IMG/VR virus record: IMGVR_UViG_3300036781_000119
Location: 7,315-71,314 of that record
Source of the DNA: a virus
Strand: one strand, 5' to 3'
DNA: 64,000 bases
Position numbers and translations under genes: made by a program. Shown here piece by piece: positions 7,262 through 64,000 of this stretch. The stretch's first letter is position 1. The number at the start of each line of letters is the position of its first letter. Below the pieces are notes generated by a model, which made no database searches, was not told the origin of the DNA, and saw nothing but the letters and a program-made list of their open reading frames with translations.

Positions 7262-7458
7262 TCCGGCGTAACGCGCACGCCGCGCATGCTCGACCCCCGC
7301 GCCGCCCGCGCGTGGCGCCGGATGGCGCGGGCCATGCGATGCCACGTCCACCCCGCCATCGCCGCAGCGTCCGCACAGCGCACCGGCTGCCACGGCATCG
7401 CCAGCTGACGCGCATGCTCGGCCCCCGCGCTGGTGATGGAGCGGAGGGTCAGGGTCAT
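7222..7458 (-). CDS. Hypothetical protein
   Basis: ATGA-coupled to the upstream TGT-like gene; overlaps the end of the convergent gene. Confidence 0.45.
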   Translation of the reverse strand: MTLTLRSITSAGAEHARQLAMPWQPVRCADAAAMAGWTWHRMARAIRRHARAARGSSMRGVRVTPDQVAEISANSGKS

Positions 7459-46561: not shown

Positions 46562-47143
46562 GTGAAGGTCTGCAAGGACTGCCGGGAGACGAAAGAGGCG
46601 ACCCACTTTTCCTCGCACCCGTCCACCAAGGACAGGCTGGCAATCGCCTGCAAGCCATGCCAGCGCGCCCGCAGCGCGGCTTGGTATCAGAAGAACCGAG
46701 AGCGGGTTCTTGAGCGCACGGCGCAATGGGGTCGCGATAATATCGAAAAGCGGCGTGAAATCGGGCGAAAGAGCAACCGGGCTACAATTTCCACCAGAAG
46801 GGCTTGGTATACCGCGAACCCCGACAAGGTGCGCGCGATCGCCCGCGTGACGCGCGCCAAGAATATCGAAAAATGTCGCGCGCGGGTCCGCGTCAACACC
46901 AAGCGGTATCGGGCTCAGCGGCTGCGCAAGCCGGCCAGATGGGCGTGCCTGAAAGCTATCGCAGCGATATATGCGCAAGCCGCCGCCCGATCGCTTGAGA
47001 CGGGAATCCCCCACGACGTTGATCATATCGTCCCGGTGCGCGGCAAAGGCGTTTGCGGTCTGCACTGCGAAAGCAACCTCCAAATTCTTCCCGCTTCCGA
47101 AAATCGGGTTAAGGGCAACCGATTCTGGCCGGATATGTTTTAA
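46562..47143 (+). CDS. HNH homing endonuclease, antisense insertion
   Basis: CKDC...CKPC N-terminus; HDVDHIVP...VCGLHCESNLQIL...N..KGN. Confidence 0.9.
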   Translation: MKVCKDCRETKEATHFSSHPSTKDRLAIACKPCQRARSAAWYQKNRERVLERTAQWGRDNIEKRREIGRKSNRATISTRRAWYTANPDKVRAIARVTRAKNIEKCRARVRVNTKRYRAQRLRKPARWACLKAIAAIYAQAAARSLETGIPHDVDHIVPVRGKGVCGLHCESNLQILPASENRVKGNRFWPDMF

Positions 47144-50226: not shown

Positions 50227-51339
50227 TCAGATACCCACCATCGACGCCACGGCATAGGGCTGCATGTAGACCGCGCCCCAGGTGCCTTGGCTGAACTTCT
50301 GCTCATAGCAGGAGAGTCCCGACACGAGCCGGCCGACGCGCAGCTTGGCATTGTAGGCCAGGATGCCCGTCTTCTGCCCGGCCACGTTGTCGGCGAACAG
50401 CTGCATGAAGTTCCCGCCCACGTAGCCGTAGCCGTTCGCCGCCGACTGCGCGCCATACTGCGGCGCGGTGACGATCTTCAGGTTGGGGAAGTTCTCCTTC
50501 AGCAGCGCCTTGACGGTCACGCCATAGATATTGGCGAACAGCAGGGCGACCGACATATTGCTGGAGAGGGCCAGCGTCATCGGCGACTGCATGTCGATGG
50601 TCGAGCCCGACTGCGCCACCAGGATGCCGATCAGCACCATGATGTCGTTATAGACCTCATTCGGGGTCGCGTTCGGCGCGCCGCCGGCGGTGAACCACGT
50701 CACGCCGCCGGCCACCTTGGGGGTGGGGGCGACGGCGGCGGACAGGCCGGGATCGTTGAAGATGCCGTAGTTGGCCAGTCCCGCGATGCCGAAGAAATAG
50801 GCGTTGTTCTGGAAGATGTTCAGCCGCGAGACGGCCGAGCCCTTCTGTTCCGACGCCCAGTTGAGCTTGGCATTGCCGGCCCGCTCCGCCTCCAGGTCGC
50901 CGTATTTGACGATCGCCTGATAGCGGTATGCCTGCCGCTGGGGCCAGTTCGCGTTGACGTTGACCATTCCGTTGTTCGAATAGTCGCCGTAGCTCGACAC
51001 CTCGCCGACGTATTCGATGACGTTGAACATCACCGTGTCGTCGGTCCAGGAACCGCGCGCTTCCTCGCCGAAGATCTCCGCCGCGTTCAGCGGCTGGAAA
51101 ACGATCCGCACTACCTTTGGGTCGATGACCGTGGTCAGGTAGCTGGGGAAGCCGGCGTTGGGCGCGGTGATCAGCTGCGGCTGCGCATCCATCGCCAGCG
51201 CGAAGTTACGCTCCGTGCCGTCGATCAGGTAGCTGTCGGCATGCTCGCCGAAGTCCACGCCGCGCGCGGCAAACATGCCCTGATGCGCGCGGAATAGATC
51301 GCGCGCCTGGGCGGCATTCGTGATCCGAATCGGGTCCAT
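50227..51339 (-). CDS. Major capsid protein (DUF2184-like)
   Basis: AGGAG SD; LAMDAQP, GEVSSYGDYSNNG, YFFGIAGLANYGIFNDP, GTWGAV. Confidence 0.92.
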   Translation of the reverse strand: MDPIRITNAAQARDLFRAHQGMFAARGVDFGEHADSYLIDGTERNFALAMDAQPQLITAPNAGFPSYLTTVIDPKVVRIVFQPLNAAEIFGEEARGSWTDDTVMFNVIEYVGEVSSYGDYSNNGMVNVNANWPQRQAYRYQAIVKYGDLEAERAGNAKLNWASEQKGSAVSRLNIFQNNAYFFGIAGLANYGIFNDPGLSAAVAPTPKVAGGVTWFTAGGAPNATPNEVYNDIMVLIGILVAQSGSTIDMQSPMTLALSSNMSVALLFANIYGVTVKALLKENFPNLKIVTAPQYGAQSAANGYGYVGGNFMQLFADNVAGQKTGILAYNAKLRVGRLVSGLSCYEQKFSQGTWGAVYMQPYAVASMVGI

Positions 51340-51350
51340 GATTTCGCTCC

Positions 51351-52283
51351 TTAACCGTTCGGATGATCCGACATCTTGATGAGTTCGTTTGGACCGCCCG
51401 CGCTCATGGCGATCCACTTGGTTTCGATGTTCCCGGTGGCGCTGATCGTCGTGCTGCTGGCGGTCTGCGTCGGGGTGACGGTGTAGGTGCCCAGGCCGCC
51501 CACCGTGTTGGCGCCCAGCTGGGTGATGCGGGTGCCGGCGGTGACGCCCGAGCCCGACAGCACATCGCCGACGCCGAAGGTGCCGGTCAGCGCGCTGGCG
51601 GCGGTGAAGATGCCGTAGGTTTCGCTGATCGTGGTGCTGGCGACCGTCTGGCTGCCCGGGGTGACGCGATACGTGCCGACGCCGCCCGTGGTGCCGGTCA
51701 GCTGGCCCAGCACCTGGGTGCCGCTGACCACGTTGGTGCCCGACAGGATGCCGCCCGGCACGACGACGCCAGAGCCCACCGCCGTGATGGTCATGATGTC
51801 GTCGGCAATCGAGCCGGTGAAGCTGCCGGTGGCGGCCGCAATCGAGCCGGTGGCCGAAGCCGCCGTAGTGGGCGACGTGCCGGCAGCGGCGAAGCTGATC
51901 GTGCCGTTGTTCAGGTTCGCGAATGCCTTCATGCCGATGGTGACGGCGGCGGCCCCAGTGTTCCGCACCCAAAAATCGCCGCCGTTCATTGCGGTGACTT
52001 CGAAGCCGGCCGGGATCAGCATGGTGGACTGGGCGAGGTAGATCGTCAGCTTCGCCTGACCCTCGCGATGGATGAAGCCCAGCGGCACGCCCGTGCCGAA
52101 GTTGTTCACCGCGTTGGGGTTGGCCGGGTCGCGCCACACGAAGCGGGCGACGGTGACGCCAGCGGCGCCAGCGATCAGCGCACCCACGCCCGCATCGACG
52201 CTGAAGATCGGGTTGGCGCTGGCGAAGTCGCCGTCCACCGCCGGGGCGGGAGCGGCGTAGACCTGGGACTGGAAGCCGGACAC
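51351..52283 (-). CDS. Head decoration/cement protein with inserted beta domains
   Basis: GFQSQV...GDFASANP...GFIHREGQ...GDFW; between the protease and capsid genes. Confidence 0.85.
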   Translation of the reverse strand: MSGFQSQVYAAPAPAVDGDFASANPIFSVDAGVGALIAGAAGVTVARFVWRDPANPNAVNNFGTGVPLGFIHREGQAKLTIYLAQSTMLIPAGFEVTAMNGGDFWVRNTGAAAVTIGMKAFANLNNGTISFAAAGTSPTTAASATGSIAAATGSFTGSIADDIMTITAVGSGVVVPGGILSGTNVVSGTQVLGQLTGTTGGVGTYRVTPGSQTVASTTISETYGIFTAASALTGTFGVGDVLSGSGVTAGTRITQLGANTVGGLGTYTVTPTQTASSTTISATGNIETKWIAMSAGGPNELIKMSDHPNG

Positions 52284-52295
52284 TGGCGTGACTCC

Positions 52296-53786
52296 TTAGT
52301 TCGCCACGCCGAAGCGGGCGGCGCTGGGGAACATCTGATCGAACGTGCTGATGCCGGCCGCATCCATGGCGATCGGCTGGGCCGTGCGCTGGTTCGGCTT
52401 GGGCAGCGCCGCCAGCAGGGCCGGGAAGCCCTCGGGCGGCACCTTGGACACGTCCACGCCGCGCGCCTTGAAGGCGAAGCGGTAGACCGCCTCGGCGCTG
52501 TCCATGGCAAGGTGGTCCATGTTCAGGTCGCCGATGTGCGGGCGCACGGCAATTTCCGCCTCGCGCAGCGCCTTGGCCTGGGCCTTGATCTTGGTTTCGC
52601 TCGCCGCGACGCGCGCAGCGATCGCCGCGTCCATCGCGCCCTTGGTCATCATGGTGGTCTTGTCCTTGGCGAAGGGGGGGGCCTTCTTGCCCTTGCCGTC
52701 CTTGCCGTCCTTGTCGGCATCGGTATCGGCATCCTCGGCGGGGTCGGCCGGGTCCGCCTCGGGCTGGAGCATCGCCTCGACAGCCGCCACGTCGTCGTCG
52801 CTCAGCTTGGTGCGCAGGAATTCCAGCACCTTGGCCATCGGGTCGGCGTCATCGGTGGTTTCTTCCTCGACCGTCTCCGCAACCGGATTCGGATCGACGC
52901 CCTCCTGCATGTCGTCTTCCACCTTGTCCACGACACCTTCCAGGTTGTCGAGCATGGTGGCCACGTCCTCGATGGTGGCGTCCTGGGCCAGCTTACCCTC
53001 GACCGCCTTGCCTAGCGCGACCATCAGTGCCGGGCGCTTGGCCTTCCAATCGGCGGCGGTCTTGATGCCCGCGAACAGGGGGCGAAGATCGACCTTCGCA
53101 TCCTGGGCCAGCTTGGGGCGGATGGCAGCTCCGATCGCGGTTGCCAGGACGAGCGCGCGCCGGTTGAGCCGGGGCACGGGAGGCTTTTTCGCCATGTCGA
53201 ATTCCTTATCTTGTGGCAGCGCGGCATCGCCCACCACTACATCTGCACCAGCACGGCCTTGCTCTACAAGGGCAACGTGGTTCCCCCGGATGTTGCGCAT
53301 CACCCCGTCATAGGCCGCGCCCTCGTATTCGCCGGGGGTCATGTCCGCGTCATACCGATAGGCGGATGACAATTCCCGCTGTTGCCCGCTTTCGATTCTG
53401 CGGATTGCGTCGCCTTCCCAAACAACCAGCGAATTGCCGAGGAAGGGGTGGGAAAATTTTGCGTCGGTGCCGGTGCTGCCCACCACCAGATCGGGCTGGT
53501 GATCGTCCACGGTGACCGGGACGTGCTTGCTGAGGATCGGCAGATTGTTGAAGCTGGCCGCGCCCTTGGCGAGTTCATCCGGGTGGCGGAGCAGGTGGTA
53601 GACCTGATCAGCCTTCAGCCCGAGCCGTTCCCAGTCGGGGATTTCCTCGCCGCGATAGGGGCAGATATTGGCCTTGCTGATATTCGCCACCTTGACGTGC
53701 AGGCGGCCATCCTCGTCGGTGCTGCGCACGCTGTCGCGGTCCATGGCCAGCACGTCGGGCCGGCGGCGGGGGGCTTCAATCAGCAT
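52296..53786 (-). CDS. Prohead protease/scaffold (DUF2213-like)
   Basis: ISKANICPYRGEEIP, RELSSAY, NHVALVEQGRAG; acidic scaffold-like C-terminus. Confidence 0.92.
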   Translation of the reverse strand: MLIEAPRRRPDVLAMDRDSVRSTDEDGRLHVKVANISKANICPYRGEEIPDWERLGLKADQVYHLLRHPDELAKGAASFNNLPILSKHVPVTVDDHQPDLVVGSTGTDAKFSHPFLGNSLVVWEGDAIRRIESGQQRELSSAYRYDADMTPGEYEGAAYDGVMRNIRGNHVALVEQGRAGADVVVGDAALPQDKEFDMAKKPPVPRLNRRALVLATAIGAAIRPKLAQDAKVDLRPLFAGIKTAADWKAKRPALMVALGKAVEGKLAQDATIEDVATMLDNLEGVVDKVEDDMQEGVDPNPVAETVEEETTDDADPMAKVLEFLRTKLSDDDVAAVEAMLQPEADPADPAEDADTDADKDGKDGKGKKAPPFAKDKTTMMTKGAMDAAIAARVAASETKIKAQAKALREAEIAVRPHIGDLNMDHLAMDSAEAVYRFAFKARGVDVSKVPPEGFPALLAALPKPNQRTAQPIAMDAAGISTFDQMFPSAARFGVAN

Positions 53787-53893
53787 GCGGGATGCAGTTT
53801 CCGATCGGCACCGGGGGATTTAGACCGATTTCAGGTGCGGCGACAACAATTCCACGTCGCGCGGTTTAATTGCGCCGGTTCGTGATTAATAAC

Positions 53894-53944
53894 TTGCGCG
53901 CCGGATAATTCATGCATAATGTGCCTTACCGGCAGAGAAGCCGG
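53894..53944 (+). promoter_or_regulatory. Sigma70-type early promoter with operator and 5' hairpin
   Basis: TTGCGC(53894)-17 nt-TAATGT(53917); TCATGCATAA at 53910-53919; CCGGC/GCCGG stem at 53929-53944. Confidence 0.72.
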
Positions 53945-53971
53945 GCAGCAGCAAGCAGGAGACACCCCACG

Positions 53972-56900
53972 ATGGCCGCCACCTTCCGCGTCATGCCCGA
54001 CATGAAGTTCAGCCACAACAGCGCCGAGGCGCTTTACGACATGACCGTCCTGCGCACCCACCGCGATGCCGGATACTGGGAATGCGTGTTTCTGAACGGG
54101 CCGCGCAAGGGCGGCATTTGGGTGCGCAGCGAGATCGACATTCTCGCCGATGTCGTCGCTGACCAGGAAGCGGACGCGACGGTCGCCGCCGAGCGCCGGG
54201 CCGAGCGCGCGCTTTCCCCGGGCTACGCCTCCTGATTCACCCACGAAGGAACCACACACCATGGCACCCGCGATCAAACTGGCATCCGCTGAAGGCCGCA
54301 CTTTCGCCCTCGGCCAAATTGTCTGCGCTCAGGGCGAGATCAATGGCCCAAAATCGACCGGCGAAATCGTCGGCTTCAAGCGTTCGGTGAGTGGGGATTT
54401 CATCGTCGCCAAGATCAAGCTGCATGGCTCTCGCACCATCGTGCGGTCTGTGCTTCAGGACATCGAGCCAGACGAGTTCTTCGCGGGCGTGATAGCCGAA
54501 ATGGAGCGGCGCGGGCTTTCCGGGCGCTTGACCGCCAAGGATGTCAAGGTCGTGAACTTCCTCCGCGCTGGCGGCAAGAGCGCGATCGAATGCGGCGCCG
54601 ATCGCGCCATGTCCTGGATTGCCGACTGAACCACCACCCACGAATAGGACACCGACATGAAGATCACCGACAGGCGGGGGCGCGTGTGGACGCTGATCCC
54701 CACCCTGCGCCAGATCGGCCCCGTGATGGCCGTATGGCAGGGGCCGGGCGTAGGCATCCGCCGCCGCTTCCCTTCCGTCGCCGCCGCCCGCGCCGCGCTC
54801 CTGGGCAGCGTGACGCCATGATGGAGCACGCCCCCCGGCTATCCCAGGCCACCGTCGCCACGCCGCCCGGCAGGCCCTACGTCTGGCGCGTGCGCGGCAT
54901 GTGCCGCGTGAGCGGAACCCGGATCAGCCCGGTGTTCTACACCGCCGACCCGAACCGCCACCGGGCGCTGGCGGATGCCGCGCTGGCCTTCCCGGGGCTG
55001 AACGTGGATGCCGTGATGGCTGCCGCCGCCGTGGTGCTGCCGTGAACACGCTCGAGCGCATCACCCGCCTGGGGCTGACGGTGCCGCGCCTCGCGCGCGC
55101 CCTGGGCACCACGCCGGCGATCCTGCGCGCTGCCTGCCGCGAAGGCACGGTGCCGCCCGAGGTCGATCGTTGGCTGGATGTTTGCTTCACCAGCCGCCCC
55201 AAGGTCGCCTGGGGCAAGCCGAGGGGGCGCCCACGCCTCCCGGATGGCCCGAAACCCCGCGTCTACAAATCCCGCGCCAAACCGAAGGATGCGCCCCGAT
55301 GAGAACGCTAGTATCGCTGGCCGACTGGTTCGGGGCGTTCACCTGCCTTTCGGTGTGCATCGCCATCCTGGGCACGACCTGGATGCAAACGCGCAAGGCC
55401 GCCGCCATGGCGCCCTGGGCCATCGTCCGCGCCTGGATCGTCATGGGCTTCGGCTCGGCCTGCCTCCTATGGGCGGCCGGGCGCGTGGCTGCCGCTGCCC
55501 TGGGGTTCCGGTGATGAGCGGCCATGATCGCCCGCCCCCGCCGATGCAGATATGGGTCACCGGCTGGTGGTGGTCCAAGGAGTTCACTGACGCGGAAGAA
55601 GCGCGCCGCTACTATGACGCGATCGGGCGCCGGCAGAAGATCATCGTCAGCATCGCCGCATTGGTGATGCTCGCAATATGCGCGGCGGCAGAATTCGCCG
55701 CATGGAGATTGCACCCATGACCGATGAGACGGATCGCGCGCAGCGGATGCTCCACCTTTCGGTGATGATCCGCCCCGCCACCGCACACGGGTGGCTTCGG
55801 CGCCGAGATTTGGACAAGCCGGGCCAGTTCGTTTGGGAGAAACCGGACGGCACCTTGGTGGCAGAAAGCCACGATATTACGCCGCGCATCGCAACTATGC
55901 TGCCAAAGAGGCCCACGCCATGACCGATCACATGGACGACGGCCGCCCGGTGGCCGCGCACATCGCCGAGGCGCGGGCGCTGGCCACGCATCTGCCCTGG
56001 TGGTCGCCGAGGCGGTGGCGGGCGTGGTTCGATGTCGCTTTCCCGCCTCCGGTGATGGTGATTCCGCTGACCACGCTGAACATCCCGCCGCCGCCGCCGC
56101 CCCGCCCCGCCTGGAGCCTGACGCCGGCGGAGATTGAGCGGGCGATGTCGCCCATGCGGATCAGGGCCGGCGTCACGCCGGAAATGCTGGCCGCCTTCGC
56201 TCGCGCCAACCACCAGAACCCCACGCTGATCGTGCCCGACAACGCCGCGATGACGCCCTACCTGCCGACCGCCGAGGGCGCCTACTGGACGGTTTGGAAC
56301 CATGGCGACGGTGGGGGCGAAGGGTTCGGCAGCCCTGTGCTGCGCTGGTGGAACCCGAAAGGCAGCAGCGATCCCTACGCCCGCAACCGCGACGGATGCT
56401 GGGAAGGCTGGGGGGACACCCACTACCCCGCCAGCGAATGCCTCGCCATTTCCCCCCGCCTGGAGCCGCCCGAGTGGCCGCCCGCACCGAAGGAACACGA
56501 CCATGGCTGACGCATTCCGCCCGTCCGGCTATTACTGGGTAGGCGCCGAGGGCGCGGACCCCAAGGACGCCTTCATTGCGTGGTGGAGCGCCGACTGGAA
56601 AGAGTGGCGCCTGGATCGCTGGGGCGTGGAGGGGATCCAGTTCCCGCTCGGCTTCACGGTCTACAGCACCGAGCCGATCGAGTTCCCCAAGCCGCCGGCG
56701 CCGGCCGCCGAGCCCGCCCCTGCTGATATCAAGCCCGAGGCGCCCCCGCCCTCCATCCCGCCGCCTGCCGCCGGGCCGAACATGACGCCGGTGGGCCGCT
56801 ACCGGGTCGCCAGCAACGGCATCGAGACGCACCTTCAGCAGCTATGGGAAGGCGACGGCGTGGCACGCTGGCGCCCGGTGCCTGGGTTGGCCGTGGCGAT

Positions 56901-57407
56901 GCTGCCCGATGGGAGCTCGCCCGCATGACGGACATGCCGGGCCATGACGCCCAGGCGGAGTGGAACGCCCTGCTGCGCCGGGCCGACGTGGCGGAAGGCT
57001 TGGTGCTGGACATGCGGCACCGCCTCGCCGCCGCCGAGCTCGACAACCGCATCCTGCAACGCACGCTCGACGGGCATGTGAAGGCGGCCCAGGCGCGGTG
57101 GCATGCGGGGCTGGCCTTCGGGTGGGCGCTGGTGCTGCTGGCGGCCCTGGGCGGCTATCTGGCGGCGCGCTGACCGCTGCTGACGCACGACCGGCCGGGG
57201 ATCATCCCGGCCGCATAGGAGACTGCACCGATGGATGACACCGACGCGCGCTCAATTGCGCTCAACCTTGCCGCCCAGGCATCCCCAGGCGATTCCGCCA
57301 CCTCCATCCTGGAGCGCGCCCACCGCTACTATGCGTTCCTTCTCGGGATCACGGAGACGGAGTTGCGGAAGCGGATGGGTTTGCCCGAGCCGGCAGCGGA
57401 TGCCTAA
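53972..57407 (+). other. Early-type cluster of about 12 small genes inside the head module (53972-54235, 54261-54629, 54657-54821, 54818-55045, 55042-55302, 55299-55514, 55514-55720, 55717-55923, 55920-56510, 56503-56928, 56925-57173, 57231-57407)
   Basis: SD sites (AGGAG, GAAGGA) and ATGA/GTGA overlaps; several TM peptides and Trp/Pro-rich proteins. Confidence 0.75.
55042..55302 (+). CDS. Small HTH protein with AT-hook-like RGRPR
   Basis: LGLTVPRLARALGTT...VPPEVDRWL; KPRGRPR. Confidence 0.6.
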   Translation: MNTLERITRLGLTVPRLARALGTTPAILRAACREGTVPPEVDRWLDVCFTSRPKVAWGKPRGRPRLPDGPKPRVYKSRAKPKDAPR

Positions 57408-58234
57408 AAGCCCTTGATCACCGGCTTGCTGACGCACCGGCAGTTCGGCAGCATCCCGGGCCAGATATACTCGCCGTCGATGAACGCGCCCTTGGCCACG
57501 TCATAGACCAGCTTTTCACGCCCGGCCTTGACGTGGCTGGGGCGCGGCTGCCGACCGCCACCGCTATGCATCCATACCGCCTGAGTGACGCCCATTTCCA
57601 GCTGGCGCGCCCGGGTGATTGTCGCCGTTGCCTTGTTCGCCTGATCCCGCGCGATGAACGCCGCCCGGTTGTGCGCCACGCCCAGCTGCGTCTTCAGCCC
57701 TTCGGTGATCTGGTGCAGATCGTAGCCCGTCTGCACCCCGCGCATCACGATGCCCTGCACCTGGGTCAGATACTGCTGGGGGATGGACTTGATCAGGTCC
57801 ACCTGCGCGCCGATCGACGCTTGCAGCACGTCGTTGACCGGCCGCGACAGCTTGAATTCGACGGTCCAGCCGCCTTCCTTCAGGATGGATTTCAGCACCG
57901 CGTCGCTGCGCGTGGCCATGCTGGTGGTGAACCACGTCGCCAGCTTCGGCGCCATCGCGGCAAAGCGGGCTTCCCAGTGCGATCCCAGGCTGGCGATTTC
58001 GGCGATCAGCCCCTTGGCCGGGCTGCCCGGCTGTTCCTCGCGCCAGCTGTCCGCCGCCATTTCAGGGGGCTTGGCGCGCCACTGGGCGCTGATCCAGTAG
58101 TCGAAGCTGGCCGCCATTTCGTTGATGAGGGCGACCAGCCGCTTGTGGAATTTCGCCTCGACCGCGACGTTGGGGCGGACAGGCTTCAGCACCACGGGCT
58201 TACCCGTGGGGGAGACGAGGCGCCGCTTAGGCAT
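57404..58234 (-). CDS. Minor head protein (MuF/gp7-like)
   Basis: LIKSIPQQYL, RAAFIARDQANK, WMHS...PRPSH, PGMLPNCRC. Confidence 0.92.
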   Translation of the reverse strand: MPKRRLVSPTGKPVVLKPVRPNVAVEAKFHKRLVALINEMAASFDYWISAQWRAKPPEMAADSWREEQPGSPAKGLIAEIASLGSHWEARFAAMAPKLATWFTTSMATRSDAVLKSILKEGGWTVEFKLSRPVNDVLQASIGAQVDLIKSIPQQYLTQVQGIVMRGVQTGYDLHQITEGLKTQLGVAHNRAAFIARDQANKATATITRARQLEMGVTQAVWMHSGGGRQPRPSHVKAGREKLVYDVAKGAFIDGEYIWPGMLPNCRCVSKPVIKGF

Positions 58235-58445
58235 CCTCGCCGTCGTCTGGCTGCTCGCGGGCGGTGGCGATCGCTGCATCATGCTTGGCGTTGTCGGCAT
58301 CTTCCTCGGGCGTGGTCAGGCTGCGGGTGGCGCCCTTGGGCTTGCCCAGCATTTCGATTTCGCCTTCAGCGATGCCGAAGCGCGCCGGGTTGCTGTGCTT
58401 CGGATCGGTGGAGGTCAGCGTGTCGTCGTCGGTGTCGCGGGTCAT
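58227..58445 (-). CDS. Small acidic protein downstream of the portal-ART fusion
   Basis: TAATG coupling, GGAAGG SD; 72 aa. Confidence 0.6.
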   Translation of the reverse strand: MTRDTDDDTLTSTDPKHSNPARFGIAEGEIEMLGKPKGATRSLTTPEEDADNAKHDAAIATAREQPDDGEDA

Positions 58446-61400
58446 TAGGTTTTCCTTCCAAGGTAGGTGCAATGGACAACGTGGGATGTGCCCCCATATT
58501 TATTAACAGATTGCACGACTTTTTCAACCCGGAACATGCTGTTGCTGTCCATCATGATCTCGCGTTCGACCAAATTTTCATTACTCGCCTGCCCCTTCAT
58601 CACCACGCCAGGGGTGCCGGCCGGGATGGTGAAACTCAGCACGGTCTGATCGCCGAAGTCCTTGGCCTTGCTTTCCGAGCGCGACACGCTGGCGAAGTTC
58701 TTGTGCACGAAGGCGCGGCCGACCGCTTCCTGGGGATCGCCAAAGCCTGTCACGGAAGCGAATGGCGAGCTCAGCCCCCGGAACACGGGGGTGTCTGCCG
58801 GCACGAAGCTGTTCTTCATCGCGCCGTGGATCTGGTCGATGTGCTTCTGTGTTGCAGCGCTGGGCTTGGACAGGCCCGACAGCGCCTGATTGATGCTTCC
58901 ATATTCGCCATCGCGGTATGCCGCGATCGCTTCCAACTGCTCGGCCGTATGGCTGGCGTGGGTGTCGTTGGCATAGGCCTGCATGGCCTTGTCCACCGCC
59001 TGCGTCATCGCATCGGTGCTGTTGCCGTAGGCGGCGGTGACCTTGGCGTAGTGGTCGCCCGGGATGTTCTTGGTGCGCGCCTCCAGCCGGGCGGTGACCG
59101 TGCCGCCGCTGGCATCCTCGTATTCGCTTTCGGTGATCGTCGTCTTGTGCGGCGCGACCTTGGCGGCATGGAACACGGCCGCCGATGGCTTGCCGGGCGG
59201 CAGTTTGGCCGTGCTGGGTGGCGTGGCGGGCTTCGGCGGCGGCGGGGCGGGGAGCGCGCCATACTCGGCCTGGACCTTGGCCAGAAAGTCGTTGACGGAC
59301 TTCTGCCCCATGCCCTGGGGGTCGCTGATCGGCTTCAGCGCCGCGAGCGCGGCCTTCTGCTCAGCTTCGGTGGGCTTGTCGAGCGCCGCCTGGATGTCGG
59401 CCGCCTTGCTGTCCACGATCGGCTTGTTCTCGGGCAGCACGTTCGCCCACGCTTCCTTCAGCTTGGTGAATTCCTGCTGGGTGGCCGGGCTCAGCGGCTT
59501 GGCCGGCGGTGGAGGCGGCGGGGCGGCGGCGGGCGCGGGCGGGGCGATGCCGGCCTGTTCCTTCACGGCGCCGGTGAGCTTGTCCAGGTAATCCTTCAGC
59601 GCGCCCTTGGTGTTGGTGTTCAGGAACTCCAGATTCTTGATCTTCACGTCGATGGGATCGTTGCTCGTGTTGATGTAGGCGAGCGCCGATTCCGCCTTCA
59701 CCTTGGACGTGCTGAGCATATCCGAGTCCACCTTCGGCAGATCGGTCAGCGTGACGGGCGCCTTGGCCGGCGCGCCACCTTCCGCCTGCACCGCCGCTGC
59801 CAGCTTGTCGATGTAGGCGTGCAGGCTGAAGGCGAAGGAAGGCGCGGCATTCTTGATCGCCTGGAGGTTGGCGACCTTCAGCGCATCCGACATCCCCGGA
59901 TTGGTGGCGTAGGCATAGGCGTTGTTCGCGATCTTCTGGTAGTCGGGCGACGTGAACTCGCCCGGCTTGGGCAGCCCCCCGGCTTCCGGCGCGATCGGTG
60001 GCGGCGCAGGCGGGGCTGGTGGGGCAGGCGGCGGCGGCGGGGGCTTGGGTGCCGGGGCGGGCGCGTTCAGCCCCTTGGCGCCCTTGCTGCTGATCAGCGG
60101 CGGGGGGTTCTTGCCTGCTTCGGTCAGCCCCTTGTGCGCAAGGCTGACGTGGCCGCCGTGGGCGGTGTTTTGGAACAGGGTAGACGCCGCGCCCGCGATC
60201 TCCCCGGTGGGTATGCCGCCCTTCTGCACAAGGTGCTTGATCAGCGCGGTGGAGGTCGGCGCCTTGCCGCTTTCCTTGGCGGCCTTCAGGTAGTCGGCGA
60301 TGCCCTGGTGCAGCGATTCGCCGCCGGCCACGGTGGTGAACTTGCCGTCAGCGTCGCGCGGGTGGTCGGCTTCAACGTAGGCGTCAAGCGCCGCCCATGC
60401 GTCAAGCGCGAGGTCGGCCGCGCCCCGGCGGAAAGGGAGCACCTTCCCGTCTTCCTCGCCCTCCCCATCGTCCTGCTGGCCCTGCCCTTCGGCGCCGGGC
60501 TCGCCCTCCATGCCCGGCATGCCCATGGGCTCGGGCGGCTCGGGTGGCGGCCCGGTCAGGTCCACGCCAGCGAACATCGGGTCATCGCGTCCCGCCAGCG
60601 ATTTGCGCACGTCGGCGGGCTCGATAACGCCCATGTTCACGTAGACGCCGTAGGTGTCGGCATCGACCTTGCGGGTGTCGGCCGCCTCCTTGTCCGTCTG
60701 CTGCCATAGGGGCACGAAATCGAACGAGATCTCATGGTCAATCTCGCCGAATTCGGAAAGCTGAATCAGGTTCAGCGTGTCGGTCAACGGGTCGCGCAGC
60801 AGATCTTCCTGCTGGGCGTGCACCCAGGCATAGAACGACCGGATTTCGCCATCGCTGGAGGCGTTCAGGCCGCTGGGGGTGATGCCCAGCAGCACCACCA
60901 GCGGAATGCCCCACACGCTGGCCAGATGCTCCTGGGCCTGCGCCTGAAGCGCGTCCAGCGTGCCAAGCGGGGTCGCCATGTTGAAGAAGTCTTCGGTGTC
61001 CTTGTTCAACACCATCGTGCCGCGATTGTCGCGCAAGGCGGTGAACATCGCCACGCGGTTGGCCAGCGACGCCACCCCGATGCCATCGCCCTGGAGCGCC
61101 GAGCTCATGTCCGTCTTGATGCCGGTGTAGGAGAACGACGCCATCAGGTCGGAAACCGACTGGCGAGCCCGCAGCCAGTTGTTTACATACGGCATTCCCA
61201 TCTGGCTTAGGGAAAGGCCGCCGAACGAATAGGCGGGCTTCAGGAGGTCCGGCATTTCGCGGGCCACCAGCGTCACCATGCGGCTGGCATGGATGAGCGC
61301 CGATTGCACAAACCAGCGATTCGGGCGGTAGTAGTCGGCGGCGGTCGGGTCGATCGAATTGTAGTCGTCGGCGAAGGTCCACATCGGTTCGATCACCTGG

Positions 61401-62065
61401 AGCCGGCGCAGACTGCCCTTCTTGACCTTCTTGGGGTCGCGGATCAGCGGCAGCGCCTTTTCGGCTGGGTCGGTGGCGCCCACGTCGTAATAGATGTGCG
61501 CCCGGCCGAAGAACCCGTCCAACTGGATCGCGTTGCGGTAAGCATCGCGCACCCGCAGCCGGCGAAACGCTTCCTCCAGAACCTTGATCTTCTTTGCCTT
61601 GTCATCCTCGCCGATGGCCTTAAGACGGATCCACTTGCGCGTCATTTCCTTGGCGATGATCTCGGCCGGGCGGCGGTATTCGGGGCGCTGCGTCAGCTCG
61701 GCCAGGAAGGGGTATCCCAGCCAGTTCACGTTGTCCCCGTAGGCCATGCCGTAGTCGTTCCACCCGGCACCGGCGGCCCAGCCGGACGCGAGCGCCAACG
61801 CCTCGGCGCTGTCCTGCGCGATCGTCATCGTGCCCTTGGGCACCACGCCGGGCATGGGCTTGGCTGGCGCAAACACGTCCGCGCGCGGCGGCCCCTTGTG
61901 GCGCTTCGGCAGGTGCGCCATCAGCGCATCCATGCTGATCAGGCGGCGGCTGGGCTGCGCCACGGGGGCGCGCACACCCAGGCCCAGGGCGGCGAGCCCG
62001 GCCGGCTTCAGGCGCATGCGGCCCATCTTCAGGGCGCTGGCGGCAGCCAGGGGCACAATGGTCAT
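58445..62065 (-). CDS. Portal protein (DUF1073-like) fused to a C-terminal ADP-ribosyltransferase
   Basis: GYPFLAELTQRPEYR, IHASRM, YSFGGLSLSQ and LLGITPSGLNASSDGEI portal motifs; C-terminal Y..IN..L, FRG, FASVS and EREI ART motifs. Confidence 0.92.
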   Translation of the reverse strand: MTIVPLAAASALKMGRMRLKPAGLAALGLGVRAPVAQPSRRLISMDALMAHLPKRHKGPPRADVFAPAKPMPGVVPKGTMTIAQDSAEALALASGWAAGAGWNDYGMAYGDNVNWLGYPFLAELTQRPEYRRPAEIIAKEMTRKWIRLKAIGEDDKAKKIKVLEEAFRRLRVRDAYRNAIQLDGFFGRAHIYYDVGATDPAEKALPLIRDPKKVKKGSLRRLQVIEPMWTFADDYNSIDPTAADYYRPNRWFVQSALIHASRMVTLVAREMPDLLKPAYSFGGLSLSQMGMPYVNNWLRARQSVSDLMASFSYTGIKTDMSSALQGDGIGVASLANRVAMFTALRDNRGTMVLNKDTEDFFNMATPLGTLDALQAQAQEHLASVWGIPLVVLLGITPSGLNASSDGEIRSFYAWVHAQQEDLLRDPLTDTLNLIQLSEFGEIDHEISFDFVPLWQQTDKEAADTRKVDADTYGVYVNMGVIEPADVRKSLAGRDDPMFAGVDLTGPPPEPPEPMGMPGMEGEPGAEGQGQQDDGEGEEDGKVLPFRRGAADLALDAWAALDAYVEADHPRDADGKFTTVAGGESLHQGIADYLKAAKESGKAPTSTALIKHLVQKGGIPTGEIAGAASTLFQNTAHGGHVSLAHKGLTEAGKNPPPLISSKGAKGLNAPAPAPKPPPPPPAPPAPPAPPPIAPEAGGLPKPGEFTSPDYQKIANNAYAYATNPGMSDALKVANLQAIKNAAPSFAFSLHAYIDKLAAAVQAEGGAPAKAPVTLTDLPKVDSDMLSTSKVKAESALAYINTSNDPIDVKIKNLEFLNTNTKGALKDYLDKLTGAVKEQAGIAPPAPAAAPPPPPPAKPLSPATQQEFTKLKEAWANVLPENKPIVDSKAADIQAALDKPTEAEQKAALAALKPISDPQGMGQKSVNDFLAKVQAEYGALPAPPPPKPATPPSTAKLPPGKPSAAVFHAAKVAPHKTTITESEYEDASGGTVTARLEARTKNIPGDHYAKVTAAYGNSTDAMTQAVDKAMQAYANDTHASHTAEQLEAIAAYRDGEYGSINQALSGLSKPSAATQKHIDQIHGAMKNSFVPADTPVFRGLSSPFASVTGFGDPQEAVGRAFVHKNFASVSRSESKAKDFGDQTVLSFTIPAGTPGVVMKGQASNENLVEREIMMDSNSMFRVEKVVQSVNKYGGTSHVVHCTYLGRKT

Positions 62066-63900
62066 CGGCCGCGCCTCGGGCCGAGCGCCTTCATAAGCGC
62101 GTCCACCTGTCCGGTGGTGACCATCATCGCGGGCCGATCGTTCGGCGCGTAGCGGATCACCACGGCATCGGCGAGGTTCGGCGAGGGCTGTCCATCCGGC
62201 ACTTTGTCCACCACGATTTTCCCCACGGCATTCGAGCTATAGGTCGGTTGCGACAATTCGGCCACCAGCTTGAGCGCCAGCGGCATGGTCGAGTCTATCG
62301 CTATCAGGTCATCGTGCGCCGCGACAACGCCTTCCGTCACCGCCCGGTGCGTCAGCTGGAAGCGGGTGCGCAGCATCCACCACGCCTGCGCCTTGCGGTT
62401 GGAGAAGAAATCCTGGTTCTGCCGGCCGGGCACAAGCTGGCCCTCGGGATCGAACACCGCTTCCGAGCCGCGATAGGCCACCACGTCGATCTGCCGCGCG
62501 CCACGGTCGGCCCGGCGCTGGTTGATCTGCTTGGCGTCGCCGCGCACGCCGGCGCCGATGCCATCAGCATCATACCGAAAGCGGGCGAAGTCGTGCACGT
62601 CGCAGGTTTGGAACACCCGCTCGACGGAATCGAAGATGTCGCTCCCTTTGCCGCTCCATTCATCCACGAAATCCAGCAGCACGCCCCGGCCGCCGGCGGT
62701 GGCGTTCTTATCCCGCCCGGCATCCGCCACGTCGAAGGCCAGCAACCGCTCGCCCGTGATCTGGATGCCCAGCTTGTGGTGCGCGTCCAGCGCGCTCAGC
62801 ACCCAGGCGCGGGGGATCAGGATGCCTTCGACGCTGGCGGTGTAGTCGATGTCCACTTCCTGGGCGACCACGACCGGGCCGTAATCGTCCAGCTGCTTCT
62901 GATACCAGCGATCGTCCTTGCGTGGGTCGGCGCGCCAGTGGGCGGTGAACACCTCCACCTTCCCGCCGAATCGCACCTGGGCGAAGGAGTTCGCCATGCC
63001 GTTGACGCTGCTGATGTCCTGCCGGCTGTTGGTGGTCGCGCTCAGCGCCGCGTCCACGAGCTCGGGCCGCTCCAGGTGGGCGGCTTCGTCCACGAAATAG
63101 ATGCCGACGCGATCGCCGCGCCCGATGTTGTCGCCCGCCTCGCCCGATATATTGGAGCCGGTTTCCGGGAAATTCAGCCGCATGTGGGGCGCGTCGCGGC
63201 TGCGCAGCCACCCGCCCTGGAATTCCGGCGGCAGCAGTTCCATGAACAGCCGCCCCTTGAAAAACAGGGATTTCGGGCTGCCGATCTTGTCCACGTATTC
63301 CTCTTTTCGGGAGCCGAAGCCGATCGCCATGCCGTCGTAGTGCAGGCACAGGGTGCAGGCGAGGGCCATGGCCAGCCACGACATGCCCATGTCCCGGCTC
63401 TTTTCGGTCAAGCCGCGCTCGCGCGCCTGCCACTTGCGCACGCTGTAGCCGATCCACTCGCGCTGCCTGGGAAACAGCAGGAACGGCATGCGCGCAGGCA
63501 AGCCCACCTCGACGTTGCGCGGATCCACCGTCACGCCCCAGTCCTCTATGAATTCGTCGGGGTGGTCGCGGTAATAGAGCTTCAGCGCCGGCAGGCATTC
63601 GGGCATGGACTGCACCAGCGCCAGCCTTTCGGCGCGCAGCTTCATCACGTCGGCGATCAGCGCCAGCTGCACATCTGCCGGGGCGCGCCAGTCAATCTCA
63701 GGCGGGCGCGGCCACAGCGGCAGCAGCGCGGCATCGAACGCGGCGATGGCGGCCGGCTGGTCGGGTGCCGGCGCCCGGAACGCCGCGCTAATTCGGCAGA
63801 GGTCGAGCAGTTCGTCGTCCGACATCGTGCGGACTGAGGCCACGGTCAATCGCTTCAGTTGCCGCTTGGTCAGCGATGGCACGGAGGCGGGCAATGACAT
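62062..63900 (-). CDS. terL: Terminase large subunit
   Basis: EKSRDMGMSW Walker A, YFVDEAAH Walker B, FDVADAGRD nuclease motif, SPNLADA. Confidence 0.95.
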   Translation of the reverse strand: MSLPASVPSLTKRQLKRLTVASVRTMSDDELLDLCRISAAFRAPAPDQPAAIAAFDAALLPLWPRPPEIDWRAPADVQLALIADVMKLRAERLALVQSMPECLPALKLYYRDHPDEFIEDWGVTVDPRNVEVGLPARMPFLLFPRQREWIGYSVRKWQARERGLTEKSRDMGMSWLAMALACTLCLHYDGMAIGFGSRKEEYVDKIGSPKSLFFKGRLFMELLPPEFQGGWLRSRDAPHMRLNFPETGSNISGEAGDNIGRGDRVGIYFVDEAAHLERPELVDAALSATTNSRQDISSVNGMANSFAQVRFGGKVEVFTAHWRADPRKDDRWYQKQLDDYGPVVVAQEVDIDYTASVEGILIPRAWVLSALDAHHKLGIQITGERLLAFDVADAGRDKNATAGGRGVLLDFVDEWSGKGSDIFDSVERVFQTCDVHDFARFRYDADGIGAGVRGDAKQINQRRADRGARQIDVVAYRGSEAVFDPEGQLVPGRQNQDFFSNRKAQAWWMLRTRFQLTHRAVTEGVVAAHDDLIAIDSTMPLALKLVAELSQPTYSSNAVGKIVVDKVPDGQPSPNLADAVVIRYAPNDRPAMMVTTGQVDALMKALGPRRGR

Positions 63901-64000
63901 CGGAGAGCGGGGCAAGTTCGTCGGAATCCTTTGCTTTCCACTCGGGGCCACCAAAGCGCGTCAGCCAGTGGATCAGGCATGACGTGGAGCCGGGTGCATT

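Follow-up and report, generated by a model that had tools for sequence, protein, structure and literature searches.

The prohead protease of bacteriophage T4 trims Alt, an Arg-specific ADP-ribosyltransferase (ART) of the R-S-E class that is made as a separate polypeptide and directed to the scaffold core. In passages of PMC5512222 and PMC9503650, Alt is described as a late product that travels in the head and, once injected, modifies the host RNA polymerase. Effectors fused to the portal or to the MuF protein have also been reported (Iyer 2017, PMC5512222), and so have head or portal proteins that carry ARTs (Iyer 2022, PMC9503650). In the available passages of these two papers the effectors are predicted to be packaged and injected; the domains named for portals are PBECR, 2H, InPase and NUDIX, whereas Alt/VIP2 ARTs are placed chiefly on MuF, and embedded zincin peptidases are proposed for processing. 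MuF-VIP2 ART fusions are mentioned for the Microbacterium phages Percival, Goodman and Johann in part of PMC7302621, and for the EFV toxin in a passage of PMC5576092, which also gives 1-2 copies of MuF per SPP1 capsid.

In Pbunavirus portals (gp19 of E217 and Pa193, gp18 of phage shane), the PF06381 part is followed at the C-terminus by an enzyme domain, in this case InPase (E 3e-43). According to the structural passages available, residues 97-528 of 765 were modelled for E217 (PMC10329688) and residues 94-528 for Pa193, whose residues 529-765 had no density and whose first 93 residues were missing from LC-MS and "may be cleaved" (PMC11456595). The portal C-terminal domain is not discussed in these parts of the two papers, and its invisibility fits disorder as well as cleavage. 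For phages of the SPN3US/phiKZ type, part of PMC10052503 describes a prohead protease that removes propeptides at one short acidic-P1 motif, A-x-E, which it uses on the portal, on ejection proteins and on itself.

Results

A single reading frame in the head module

The window, that is, the whole stretch of 64,000 nucleotides analysed here, comes from the complete 71.3-kb genome of an uncultured soil myovirus with terminal repeats and an estimated completeness of 100%. A preliminary description had reported one 1206-aa ORF at 58445..62065. This ORF (P0001) is indeed single and intact, starts with ATG and lies on the minus strand; the plus-strand translation of the interval is interrupted by stops. 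It is the sole portal gene of a head module with the following members.

62062..63954, minus strand: large terminase gene, upstream of the portal (phrog_2, E 1.5e-20); its stop overlaps the portal start
58445..62065, minus strand: portal::cargo ORF P0001, 1206 aa, intact in a second assembly
57404..58300, minus strand: short MuF, 298 aa, downstream of the portal (PF04233 at residues 180-290; phrog_324), with EMAADS at residue 80
52296..53786, minus strand: DUF2213 head-maturation protease with a scaffold-like C-terminal half, 496 aa (PF09979, E 7.2e-49; phrog_2229)
50227..51339, minus strand: major capsid protein (phrog_264 and translation) whose start is probably the Met at 51339, giving 370 aa, with LAMDA at residue 48

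The ATG of the portal::cargo ORF and the TGA of the terminase gene share 4 nt (ATGA). The gene order is TerL, portal::ART, MuF, DUF2213 protease and MCP, followed by the tail sheath and baseplate, and the position of the portal gene between the large terminase and the MuF/head genes is kept in most of 80 IMG/VR loci. The MuF is short, as had been noted. No cultured phage record covers at least 80% of P0001 (0 of 762 matching records).

The preliminary description had asked for confirmation that no stop or frameshift lies near 60400-60500, and none was found in the assembled sequence. An independent Logan re-assembly of the one public run with the same DNA, probably the source sample of the record, gave a 71,217-base contig at depth 17.3 that is identical at the contig level to window positions 58000-62500 (0 differences, 0 gaps). 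GC3 remains coding-like across the portal/cargo junction.

Domain content of the portal::cargo protein

The following features were delineated in the ORF.

61808..61822, minus strand: IAQDS, residues 82-86, an A-x-D near the portal N-terminus and candidate protease site; an alignment of 24 portals shows no variation at A83 and D85
60650..61702, minus strand: portal domain PF06381/DUF1073 (Phage_portal_3), residues 122-472, E 2.2e-82
60431..60553, minus strand: Gly/Pro/acidic (Glu-rich) linker after the portal core, residues 505-545 (widest 505-548), from the sequence
60338..60421, minus strand: junction module, residues 549-576, a duplicated A-L-D-A, then Y-V-E-A-D-H-P-R-D-A-D-G-K-F (pattern and profile)
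60119..60319, minus strand: first cargo domain, residues 583-649, predicted 4-helix (AF2 block, pLDDT 78-91)
59978..60085, minus strand: poly-Pro linker, residues 661-696, predicted disordered (AF2 and sequence)
59777..59947, minus strand: three-helix repeat 1, residues 707-763 (AF2)
59555..59713, minus strand: three-helix repeat 2, residues 785-837 (AF2 block, pLDDT 85-94)
59264..59485, minus strand: 4-helix bundle before the ART, residues 861-934 (AF2), conserved in a 14-sequence alignment
58448..59185, minus strand: ART module, residues 961-1206, a beta-hairpin and helices, then the catalytic core (PF03496, Foldseek and motifs)

The portal of about 520 aa expected in the N-terminal part and the acidic/Pro linker behind it were both recovered. 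The PF06381 match scores 277.1 bits (cut-off 33.8) over model positions 5-355 of 357, phrog_146 spans residues 77-592 (E 4.5e-103), and the linker, Gly/Pro/Glu-rich, starts at residue 505. By likeness to gp19 of E217 and Pa193, this portal would form a dodecameric ring at the unique vertex. As in the window, the Pbunavirus portal gene is followed by MuF and by a homologue of the DUF2213-type protease-scaffold; its product differs from P0001 by an identity of about 27% in the portal, by InPase in place of the ART and by a linker without the HPR..G.F peptide.

The helical domains split by poly-Pro linkers of the preliminary description reappear in the AF2 prediction, in which low-confidence Pro-rich stretches (residues 655-700, 838-860 and 936-962) separate the predicted helical domains. 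The domain at residues 583-649 is common to the free-standing cargo proteins in the alignment and gave no Pfam, NCBIfam or fold match. The count of three-helix repeats differs between relatives.

Judged by its sequence and predicted fold, the C-terminal module is an R-S-E ART of the Alt/VIP2 clade with a VIP2/CDTa-like structure. PF03496 matches residues 1033-1187 (E 6.8e-14, 52.1 bits for a cut-off of 23.4), and each motif named beforehand was located once: VFRG at 1094-1097, FASVS at 1124-1128 and EREI at 1167-1170, with R1096, S1126/S1128 and E1167/E1169 as the catalytic residues. All 14 aligned sequences keep the R, the S-x-S, the Q and the E-x-E. The AF2 model of the region (pLDDT 84.8) found CDTa (2wn8) as its best Foldseek match (E 8.5e-11), followed at E values of about 1e-8 to 1e-10 by iota Ia, C2-I, VIP2, C3 and Certhrax; the probability is 1.00 for CDTa, VIP2, iota Ia, C2-I and C3. 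A profile match to Vip2 (9vej, E 1.7e-16) aligns the R, STS and ExE, and phrog_802, "Alt-like", is matched at E 1.3e-8. These toxins share the ART fold and the R, S-T-S, E-x-E signature with P0001, at 13-24% identity over about 200 aligned columns; in P0001 a single ART follows phage-specific helical modules, and the B-component context of binary toxins is absent. Catalytic competence is thus plausible from motifs and model, and a putative arginine specificity is suggested by the E-x-E alone.

The AT-richer 3' end noticed earlier corresponds to the catalytic part (58445-58960; GC 0.585, GC3 0.75), compared with GC 0.66-0.69 and GC3 0.88-0.92 in the remaining ORF and a GC of 0.669 for the window. 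Altogether, P0001 is a true in-frame fusion that joins an R-S-ExE ART of the Alt/VIP2 class to a PF06381 portal.

The same cargo on other carriers

Three other uncultured phages encode a portal+ART architecture, namely P0002 (1109 aa; its cargo is 73% identical to that of P0001), P0014 (1173 aa) and a 921-aa ORF of L007. Of 13 relatives of residues 560-1206, 11 have no portal domain; these free-standing cargo proteins begin with a short helix, followed by the same junction peptide at residues 40-100. The cargo cassette adjoins portal and MuF in 13 IMG/VR loci, and MuF-ART relatives of the window MuF (P0148, P0161 and P0171) share the junction peptide. In a tree built from 23 ART modules, the P0001/P0002 pair is nested within free-standing forms, and the label "portal-fused" needs 3 changes, at least 2 of them forced by well-supported branches. 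At the level of sequence comparison, these data establish the ART cargo as a mobile cassette exchanged between carriers. The survey of DUF1073 portals envisaged in the preliminary description revealed variable C-terminal cargo: PF03496 is carried by 26 of the 119 long PF06381 portals listed, and others bear zeta-toxin, Topo IB, InPase, NUDIX or Acb1 cargo.

The junction peptide and the head protease

The junction of P0001 consists of LALDAW (residues 552-557), AALDAY (558-563) and EADHPRDADGKF (565-576). The short motif already noticed at this place occurs once, as EADHPRDADGKF; the tandem ALDA sites are both present, and the simpler view is that a single junction module has had its upstream half duplicated locally. 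The peptide has the consensus [FW]xExxHPRxxxG[KQR][FW] and precedes cargo modules on portals, MuF, protease and free proteins. With a loose pattern, 81 of 132 proteins gave 96 instances; E stands at -3 in 94/96 and F/W at -5 in 92/96, the H and R (96/96) being fixed by the search pattern itself. The consensus of the whole junction opens with A at -10, D at -8 and A at -7. A profile of the module matched 4473 representative proteins at E<=1e-3, and at least 2 copies were present in 142 of the 150 best matches. In the examples checked, the copies are positioned between Pfam domains. Among 45 long MuF relatives, all four cargo-bearing proteins have the peptide at the MuF-cargo boundary. These observations support the ALDA and HPR..GKF elements as marks of the carrier/cargo boundary. 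A strict pattern is present in only 55 of 121 long portals, so that release cannot everywhere depend on this peptide. The terms HPR, HxR, linker, conserved motif and processing site do not appear in the text of Iyer 2017 (PMC5512222).

The A-x-D-A upstream half of the junction matches five conserved sites of the DUF2213 protease-scaffold. In the window protein, a homologue of the Pa193 gp24 "scaffolding protein" (9b40_G, E 2e-15), these are A-[QM]-D-[AS] at residues 227, 267, 384, 427 and 473, and five A-[QMA]-D-[AS] sites are common to 18 aligned protease-scaffold proteins. A-x-D sites are also found close to the N-terminus of both the portal and the capsid protein, and MuF has a variant. The four head proteins of the window (2331 aa) contain the pattern A[QML]D[AS] 9 times, compared with 0.59 +/- 0.74 in 500 shuffles (maximum 3), a contrast that is inflated because the patterns were defined after being seen. 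The shared A-x-D and [FW]-x-E elements would fit a release of the cargo by the protease. Their presence in scaffold, portal, MCP and cargo junction is analogous to the A-x-E of the SPN3US/phiKZ type; that protease belongs to another family and its sites were mapped experimentally, whereas those of the P0001 phage are candidates read from sequence.

Discussion

We propose that P0001 is both a head component and the carrier of an injected effector, a complete reading whose chances we regard as about even. The N-terminal ~500 residues form the portal. The C-terminus of a portal faces the capsid interior, and in the E217 and Pa193 structures the C-terminal portal barrel reportedly projects into the head; each portal subunit would thus carry its extension of about 660 residues into the interior of the procapsid, and up to 12 copies may be packaged, as the preliminary description supposed. 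The cassette comprises the junction peptide, a small helical domain, variable three-helix repeats on Pro-rich tethers and the Alt/VIP2-class ART. The DUF2213 prohead protease may cut the junction module at the A-x-D-A and/or the [FW]-x-E element, the freed cargo of about 65-70 kDa would leave through the tail with the DNA, and the ART would mono-ADP-ribosylate one or several host proteins, probably on arginine, early in infection. T4 Alt offers a parallel for injection and early host modification, with the difference that the P0001 ART is covalently attached to the portal.

The junction peptide could instead be a packaging or docking tag that binds the scaffold, the capsid interior, DNA or the portal channel, with any release arising from cleavage elsewhere in the linkers or from unfolding and threading. 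This is an improbable interpretation that nevertheless deserves weight, for prohead-protease sites are typically much less conserved than the core [FW]xExxHPRxxxG[KRQ][FW] (E in 94/96), which extends far beyond the phages shown to have a DUF2213 protease. It recurs in 12-18 copies in giant proteins of up to 7334 aa, the most distant of which lack the A-x-D-A half, and its place 40-100 residues from the N-terminus of free-standing cargo resembles a targeting region. However, one tag per module of a single polypeptide would be redundant for packaging and is expected for processing; moreover, the peptide is kept even on cargo that a covalent bond to portal or MuF already anchors, and its upstream half matches the protease-scaffold's own sites.

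We consider it rather less probable that the cargo stays covalently on the mature portal and is never injected, the ART acting late in the producer cell or modifying phage proteins or DNA within the capsid, or the extension being structural around the portal barrel. Cleavage of P0001 is something we infer, the Pbunavirus portal C-termini are simply unseen in the cryo-EM accounts available, and the strict peptide is missing in 66 of 121 long portals. Yet relatives encode the same cargo as a free-standing gene, so that it can function unattached to the portal. In addition, the Acb1 anti-CBASS, Topo IB and zeta-toxin kinase cargo make sense only in the next host, and ejection would have to cope with twelve tethered chains of about 70 kDa at the DNA exit.

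One would also wonder whether the protein is a prophage-borne polymorphic toxin serving inter-bacterial competition rather than host takeover, as proposed for MuF fusions in passages of Jamet 2017 (PMC5576092). A toxin-like ART does end a head protein here, and the lower GC of its catalytic domain looks as if it had been swapped in. We find this idea very unlikely since the 144-nt gap between the ART stop (58445) and MuF (58300) holds no immunity-like ORF (at least 60 aa, coding strand), the record represents a free viral genome bearing terminal repeats, and none of the 67 window ORFs scanned matches an integrase family (7.3 kb of the genome lie outside the window). In those systems the MuF domain lies N-terminal to the toxin on one polypeptide; in the P0001 phage MuF is a separate gene and the toxin is on the portal. 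Finally, that an assembly or sequencing error merged a portal gene with a free-standing ART cargo gene is scarcely credible: relatives do encode the cargo separately and the frame is supported by contigs rather than raw reads, but a second assembler returned the same sequence, GC3 stays at coding level through the junction, and P0002, P0014 and L007, on other contigs, share the fusion with a comparable linker and junction.

The novelty first attributed to a portal-borne cargo was overstated, given the effector-portal fusions described in parts of PMC5512222 and the frequency of PF03496 on long portals; the portal::ART design had been described before and is frequent in metagenomes. Like the polyvalent and head-anchored effectors of Iyer, P0001 places an effector on a head protein, in the late head module of a terminase-portal phage; the processing proposed here involves DUF2213, unlike their embedded zincins. 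In the MuF-VIP2 fusions, too, a VIP2-like ART ends a head protein, there a minor one encoded beside the portal gene; the carrier in P0001 is the portal, presumably a dodecamer, instead of MuF. What our analysis adds is that relatives hold the same ART cargo as a free-standing gene beside portal and MuF, and that a generic junction peptide precedes cargo modules, its A-x-D-A half matching the DUF2213 sites.

Organization of the portal::ART gene and its genome

The protein P0001 joins a portal domain to a C-terminal ADP-ribosyltransferase (ART) through a linker, a short junction and several helical domains. Pfam assigns residues 122-472 to PF06381 (Phage_portal_3, formerly DUF1073; E 2.2e-82) and residues 1033-1187 to PF03496 (ADPrib_exo_Tox; E 6.8e-14), and PHROGs gives the portal family phrog_146 at residues 77-592 and the "Alt-like" ART family phrog_802 at residues 1018-1128. 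The motifs quoted in the preliminary description were each found, with a single occurrence, and the AT-richer 3' end that it reported is also apparent, the catalytic part having a GC content of 0.585 and a GC3 of 0.75 vs 0.66-0.69 and 0.88-0.92 in the remaining ORF. A plus-strand reading of the same interval was ruled out, its translation being interrupted by stops.

Features of the window
62062-63954, minus strand, large terminase (TerL)
58445..62065, minus strand, portal::ART ORF (ATG start, 1206 aa)
57404-58300, minus strand, short minor head protein MuF (298 aa)
52296-53786, minus strand, DUF2213 head-maturation protease with a scaffold-like C-terminal half
50227-51339, minus strand, major capsid protein (MCP; probably 370 aa from the Met at 51339)

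Features of P0001
Residues 552-557, LALDAW
Residues 558-563, AALDAY
Residues 565-576, EADHPRDADGKF
Residues 583-649, four-helix domain predicted by AF2
Residues 661-696, poly-Pro stretch predicted by AF2 to be disordered
Residues 707-763 and 785-837, two three-helix bundles predicted by AF2
Residues 1094-1097, VFRG
Residues 1124-1128, FASVS
Residues 1167-1170, EREI

The TerL stop and the portal::ART start codon share the tetranucleotide ATGA. Neck, sheath, tape-measure and baseplate genes lie on the same strand beyond the MCP gene, so that the phage is a myovirus. Its IMG/VR record counts 71,314 bases, most of them covered by the window, with direct terminal repeats and a completeness estimate of 100%.

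High GC accounts for two spurious long ORFs: a 636-aa GTG-started "capsid" ORF with a false Arg/His-rich N-terminus (50227-52137, minus) and a 1058-aa ORF antisense to the portal gene (57533-60709, plus). The start of the former is probably wrongly placed, the HK97-like part of 370 aa opening at the Met at 51339. The 3.6 kb from MuF to the protease (53800-57400) contain overlapping ORFs on both strands with uncertain gene calls and no Pfam or PHROG match; they may encode further head-internal proteins, or a moron. Elsewhere, a queuine tRNA-ribosyltransferase-like gene (7455-8192, minus; phrog_1279, E 1.3e-65) and a ParB-like::DNA methyltransferase fusion (1265-2527, minus; phrog_498, E 8e-104) hint that the phage may modify DNA. 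An endonuclease VII/HNH-like gene (46562-47143, plus) sits within the neck/tail block on the opposite strand.

The fusion is very probably genuine

The possibility that a missed stop or frameshift had joined two genes was addressed with Logan, an independent assembly of the single public run holding the stretch (a soil metagenome, probably the source sample). The Logan contig (71,217 bases, depth 17.3) is identical across 58000-62500, which rules out a mistake by the original assembler; since contigs were compared, this agreement does not extend to read-level errors. Firmer support comes from other contigs that carry a PF06381 and PF03496 fusion, encoding the database proteins P0002 (1109 aa) and P0014 (1173 aa) and a 921-aa ORF of the viral locus L007, all with a linker and junction comparable to those of P0001. 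Internal initiation at the Met cluster of the linker was rejected as a conserved mechanism: no convincing ribosome-binding site was found, and these Met residues are missing in P0002 and P0014. We hold it as almost certain that P0001 is a genuine fusion bearing an intact ART site.

The ART domain and the middle domains

In an alignment of 14 relatives, the catalytic Arg, the serines of the S-x-S motif, one Gln and both Glu of the E-x-E motif are invariant. The AF2 model of residues 860-1206 (mean pLDDT 84.8) displays successively a four-helix bundle, a Pro-rich disordered stretch and a beta-hairpin/helix region leading into the ART core. With this core, Foldseek retrieved CDTa (2wn8, E 8.5e-11), iota Ia, C2-I, VIP2, C3 and Certhrax, each with a probability of 1.00, and a profile compared with PDB sequences aligned the R, STS and ExE blocks with Vip2 (9vej, E 1.7e-16). 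Given the invariant catalytic residues, the CDTa/VIP2-like predicted fold and the Vip2 alignment, the domain is plausibly an active member of the R-S-E, Alt/VIP2 class. Its presumed specificity for arginine we infer from E-x-E alone.

The model of residues 545-865 (pLDDT 72) contains the junction, predicted at low confidence, and the helical domains listed above. Foldseek gave no match at E<=0.001 for this region, the ESM Atlas no usable match for residues 545-665, and searches of Pfam (E<=10) and NCBIfam (E<=1) nothing over the junction or the middle domains. The number of helical repeats differs among relatives, and the cargo length consequently ranges from about 540 to 1442 aa.

Diverse cargo on one portal family

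The preliminary description had suggested surveying DUF1073 portals for variable C-terminal cargo, and such cargo was indeed seen both among the long portals listed and in IMG/VR loci. From 8000 candidates scored, 711 proteins of 663-2111 aa match the portal part at E<=1e-20. According to the precomputed Pfam column, PF03496 is present in 26 of the 119 portal matches listed besides the query; other cargo among the matches listed comprises Zeta_toxin/AAA_33, Topoisom_I, InPase, ddrB-ParB, NUDIX, RelA_SpoT, PBECR, LPD3, His_Phos_1, RMF and inteins. For the best 80 of 582 confirmed IMG/VR stretches, 71 portal ORFs are complete and 19 of these run at least 120 aa past the core (24/80 when 3'-open ORFs are counted). 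The extensions in these 80 loci include ART, zeta-toxin kinase, His_Phos_1, InPase, NUDIX, ddrB-ParB, LPD3, DUF6098, Topo IB and Acb1. Cultured-phage records gave portal-only matches, none of 762 covering at least 80% of P0001 and none of 814 covering at least 80% of a portal+InPase relative.

Several of these portals deserve mention in their own right. A 648-aa portal at L086:9881-11827, and likewise those of L088 and L090, ends with Acb1 (PF23474, E 9.7e-24), a known anti-CBASS phosphodiesterase, so that a counter-defence protein is here carried by the portal; the L086 protein has no HPR junction peptide. The portal relatives P0046 (829 aa), with a ribosome modulation factor domain (PF04957, precomputed Pfam column), and P0019, with a RelA_SpoT domain, suggest cargo that may be aimed at translation or alarmones. 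Inteins (PF14890, PF13403) are frequent in portal and MuF relatives (e.g. P0031, P0074, P0139-P0147).

Numerous matches from Pseudomonas aeruginosa phages belong to Pbunavirus, at about 27% identity. The gp18 portal of phage shane (765 aa) consists of PF06381 and a C-terminal InPase and is followed by MuF. Its InPase domain (L095:5680-7977, Pseudomonas phage shane MT119368.1, shane_18; PF18823, E 3e-43) belongs to an entry annotated only as "minor head protein-like". According to the accessible text of the two cryo-EM studies, residues 97-528 of 765 were modelled in the E217 portal, the first 65 residues of the E217 capsid protein being invisible (PMC10329688), and residues 94-528 in the Pa193 portal, with residues 529-765 devoid of density and the first 93, absent from LC-MS, described as residues that "may be cleaved" (PMC11456595). 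The Pbunavirus InPase domain corresponds to the 237 portal residues unmodelled in both, as far as those texts go. Our DUF2213 profile matches the Pa193 "scaffolding protein" gp24 (9b40_G, E 2e-15), for which residues 286-326 alone are described as visible in the same portion of the Pa193 report (PMC11456595). These accounts are compatible with a portal trimmed at its N-terminus and with a C-terminal cargo that is either flexible or detached, without deciding the matter.

The cargo as a mobile cassette

Among 8000 candidates scored, 13 relatives of P0001 residues 560-1206 were found, and 11 of them, free-standing proteins of 721-1407 aa, lack a portal domain. Ten of these 11 carry the junction peptide near residues ~40-100, mostly preceded by a short N-terminal helix and followed by the same four-helix domain; the junction pattern was not matched in the remaining one, P0004. 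Querying viral contigs with one ART sequence gave no close relatives; an alignment-based query located the ART cassette in the head module of 13 IMG/VR loci. The usual order there is TerL, portal, an ORF of ~276 aa without Pfam match, ART cargo and NUDIX::DUF2213. Both forms coexist at L007:4586-8963, where portal::ART (921 aa) is followed by a free-standing paralogous ART (544 aa) and then by MuF. In a maximum-likelihood tree of 23 ART modules, every row being kept, the "portal-fused" label requires three changes, at least two of them forced by well-supported branches, and P0001 and P0002 (support 100/100) lie inside a clade (96/95) with 11 free forms. Judged from these sequence comparisons, the cargo is a cassette moving between carriers.

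A junction module shared by several carriers and free-standing cargo

The junction module of P0001 (residues 549-576) lies between portal and cargo. A strict pattern detects its HPR..G.F peptide in 55/121 long portals, and a looser one yields 96 instances in 81 of 132 proteins, with the consensus A(-10) [D/A/Q](-9) D(-8) A(-7) E(-6) [F/W](-5) x E(-3) [S/G/A] [D/K] H-P-R x x [D/N] G [K/Q] F; 94 of the 96 have the Glu at -3. A Gly/Ser run usually comes after the module. The tandem "ALDA" sites singled out in the preliminary description are present, and we now read them as a local duplication of the upstream half of the module.

The module is not confined to portals. Inteins are carried by the majority of 45 long MuF relatives, most of which are thus long because of an intein rather than cargo; cargo occurs in four (three ART, one GNAT). 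All four contain the module, at the MuF/cargo boundary in the ART fusions and at residue 93 in the GNAT fusion. It was also seen ahead of protease domains, on their N-terminal side, and within separate small ORFs. At E<=1e-3, a profile built from 22 junctions matched 4473 representative proteins, and 555 at the stricter E<=1e-10. At least two copies are present in 142 of the best 150 matches (median 3). The two largest proteins, P0182 (7334 aa) and P0183 (5313 aa), have 18 and 16 HMM stretches, and 12 and 15 copies by pattern. In the examples checked, the copies fall between Pfam domains: those of P0186 are at 122, 419, 777, 1038 and 1262, around ART (247-392), NUDIX (658-761) and Topo IB (1301-1534) domains. 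The occurrence of HPR..G.F motifs in phage polyvalent proteins, mentioned in the preliminary description, is borne out by the profile search. The peptide has no Pfam or NCBIfam model and no description in the literature searched; the accessible portions of PMC5512222 make no mention of HPR/HxR, a linker, a conserved motif or a processing site, and those of PMC5576092 none of a motif, cleavage, linker or junction.

A possible link to the head protease

The A-x-D-A element that opens the junction consensus recurs in other head proteins. C-terminal to their protease domain, 18 DUF2213 protease-scaffold proteins have five A-[Q/M/A]-D-[A/S] sites in common (residues 227, 267, 384, 427 and 473 in that of the window). 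In their alignment several columns of these sites are invariant or at least 90% conserved, and His88, Ser140 and His170 are invariant. Near the portal N-terminus, IAQDS occupies residues 82-86, with A83 and D85 invariant in 24 portals; LAMDA is found at MCP residue 48 and a variant, EMAADS, at MuF residue 80. The 71 window ORFs (19,622 aa) contain 12 occurrences of A[QML]D[AS] vs 3.36 +/- 1.9 after shuffling, 9 of them in the four head proteins (2331 aa) vs 0.59 +/- 0.74 (maximum 3 in 500), a narrower A-x-D pattern giving 5 vs 0.71, but these figures overstate the case because the patterns were set after the sites had been seen. Conservation across families is the better argument.

A motif common to scaffold, portal, MCP, MuF and cargo junction looks like a prohead-protease site. 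A parallel can be drawn with SPN3US, whose portal, ejection proteins and protease are all cleaved at a single A-x-E motif according to the accessible part of the report (PMC10052503). Searches of the DUF1073, DUF2213 and Bcep781 literature returned nothing useful on cleavage sites. The candidate cut could follow the Asp of A-x-D or the invariant Glu of [FW]-x-E, and there may be cuts at both. As a separate observation, a single profile of 1119 positions, phrog_30637, has matches in the C-half of the portal, in the junction region and in the DUF2213 protease, which suggests that some isolate phages may encode portal and protease as one polypeptide.

In our opinion, the cargo is in all likelihood carried inside the capsid. 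We lean slightly towards its release by proteolysis at the junction, as the motif comparisons would indicate, and give an even chance to its injection and action on host proteins. More tentatively, the ~25-residue A-x-D-A-x-[FW]-x-E-x-x-H-P-R-x-x-x-G-[KQR]-[FW] could be a general "release header" of capsid-carried effectors, that is, a protease or self-cleavage site that separates modules. Such a header would stand before every cargo module, be it free-standing, attached to a portal, MuF or prohead protease, or part of a chain within a giant polyvalent protein, and the modules would be separated there for injection by the head protease or by self-cleavage.

Biological significance

PBECR, 2H and InPase domains fused to portal and MuF and predicted to be packaged and injected (Iyer et al. 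2017, PMC5512222), ARTs borne by head proteins or portals (Iyer et al. 2022, PMC9503650), MuF-VIP2 fusions in Microbacterium phages (PMC7302621) and VIP2 fusions among MuF toxins (PMC5576092) are described in the accessible parts of these publications, and the portal-ART locus thus belongs to a class already described. Reports on phage 7-7-1 and phi24B (a preprint) had no bearing on portal cargo. The preliminary description was right about the architecture and proposed a plausible mechanism; the fusion is not novel as a class, and by itself is an expected member of it.

This locus nevertheless provides a clean minimal case, with a single carrier, a single junction and a single enzyme, of a portal-cargo design that is widespread in metagenomes and hardly studied at the bench. 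In the Pbunavirus group of E217 and Pa193, used in therapy cocktails, well-studied phages possess an unexamined portal enzyme domain. Head-packaged effectors are the first phage proteins met by the cell and therefore decide how the initial struggle with its transcription and defence systems goes. As a single short junction and a single protease emerge from the comparisons, the release of cargo from portal and MuF is now open to direct experiment. If the release header is real, one peptide would allow the mature termini of injected phage proteins to be predicted by the thousand, and it could be used for loading chosen cargo into capsids.
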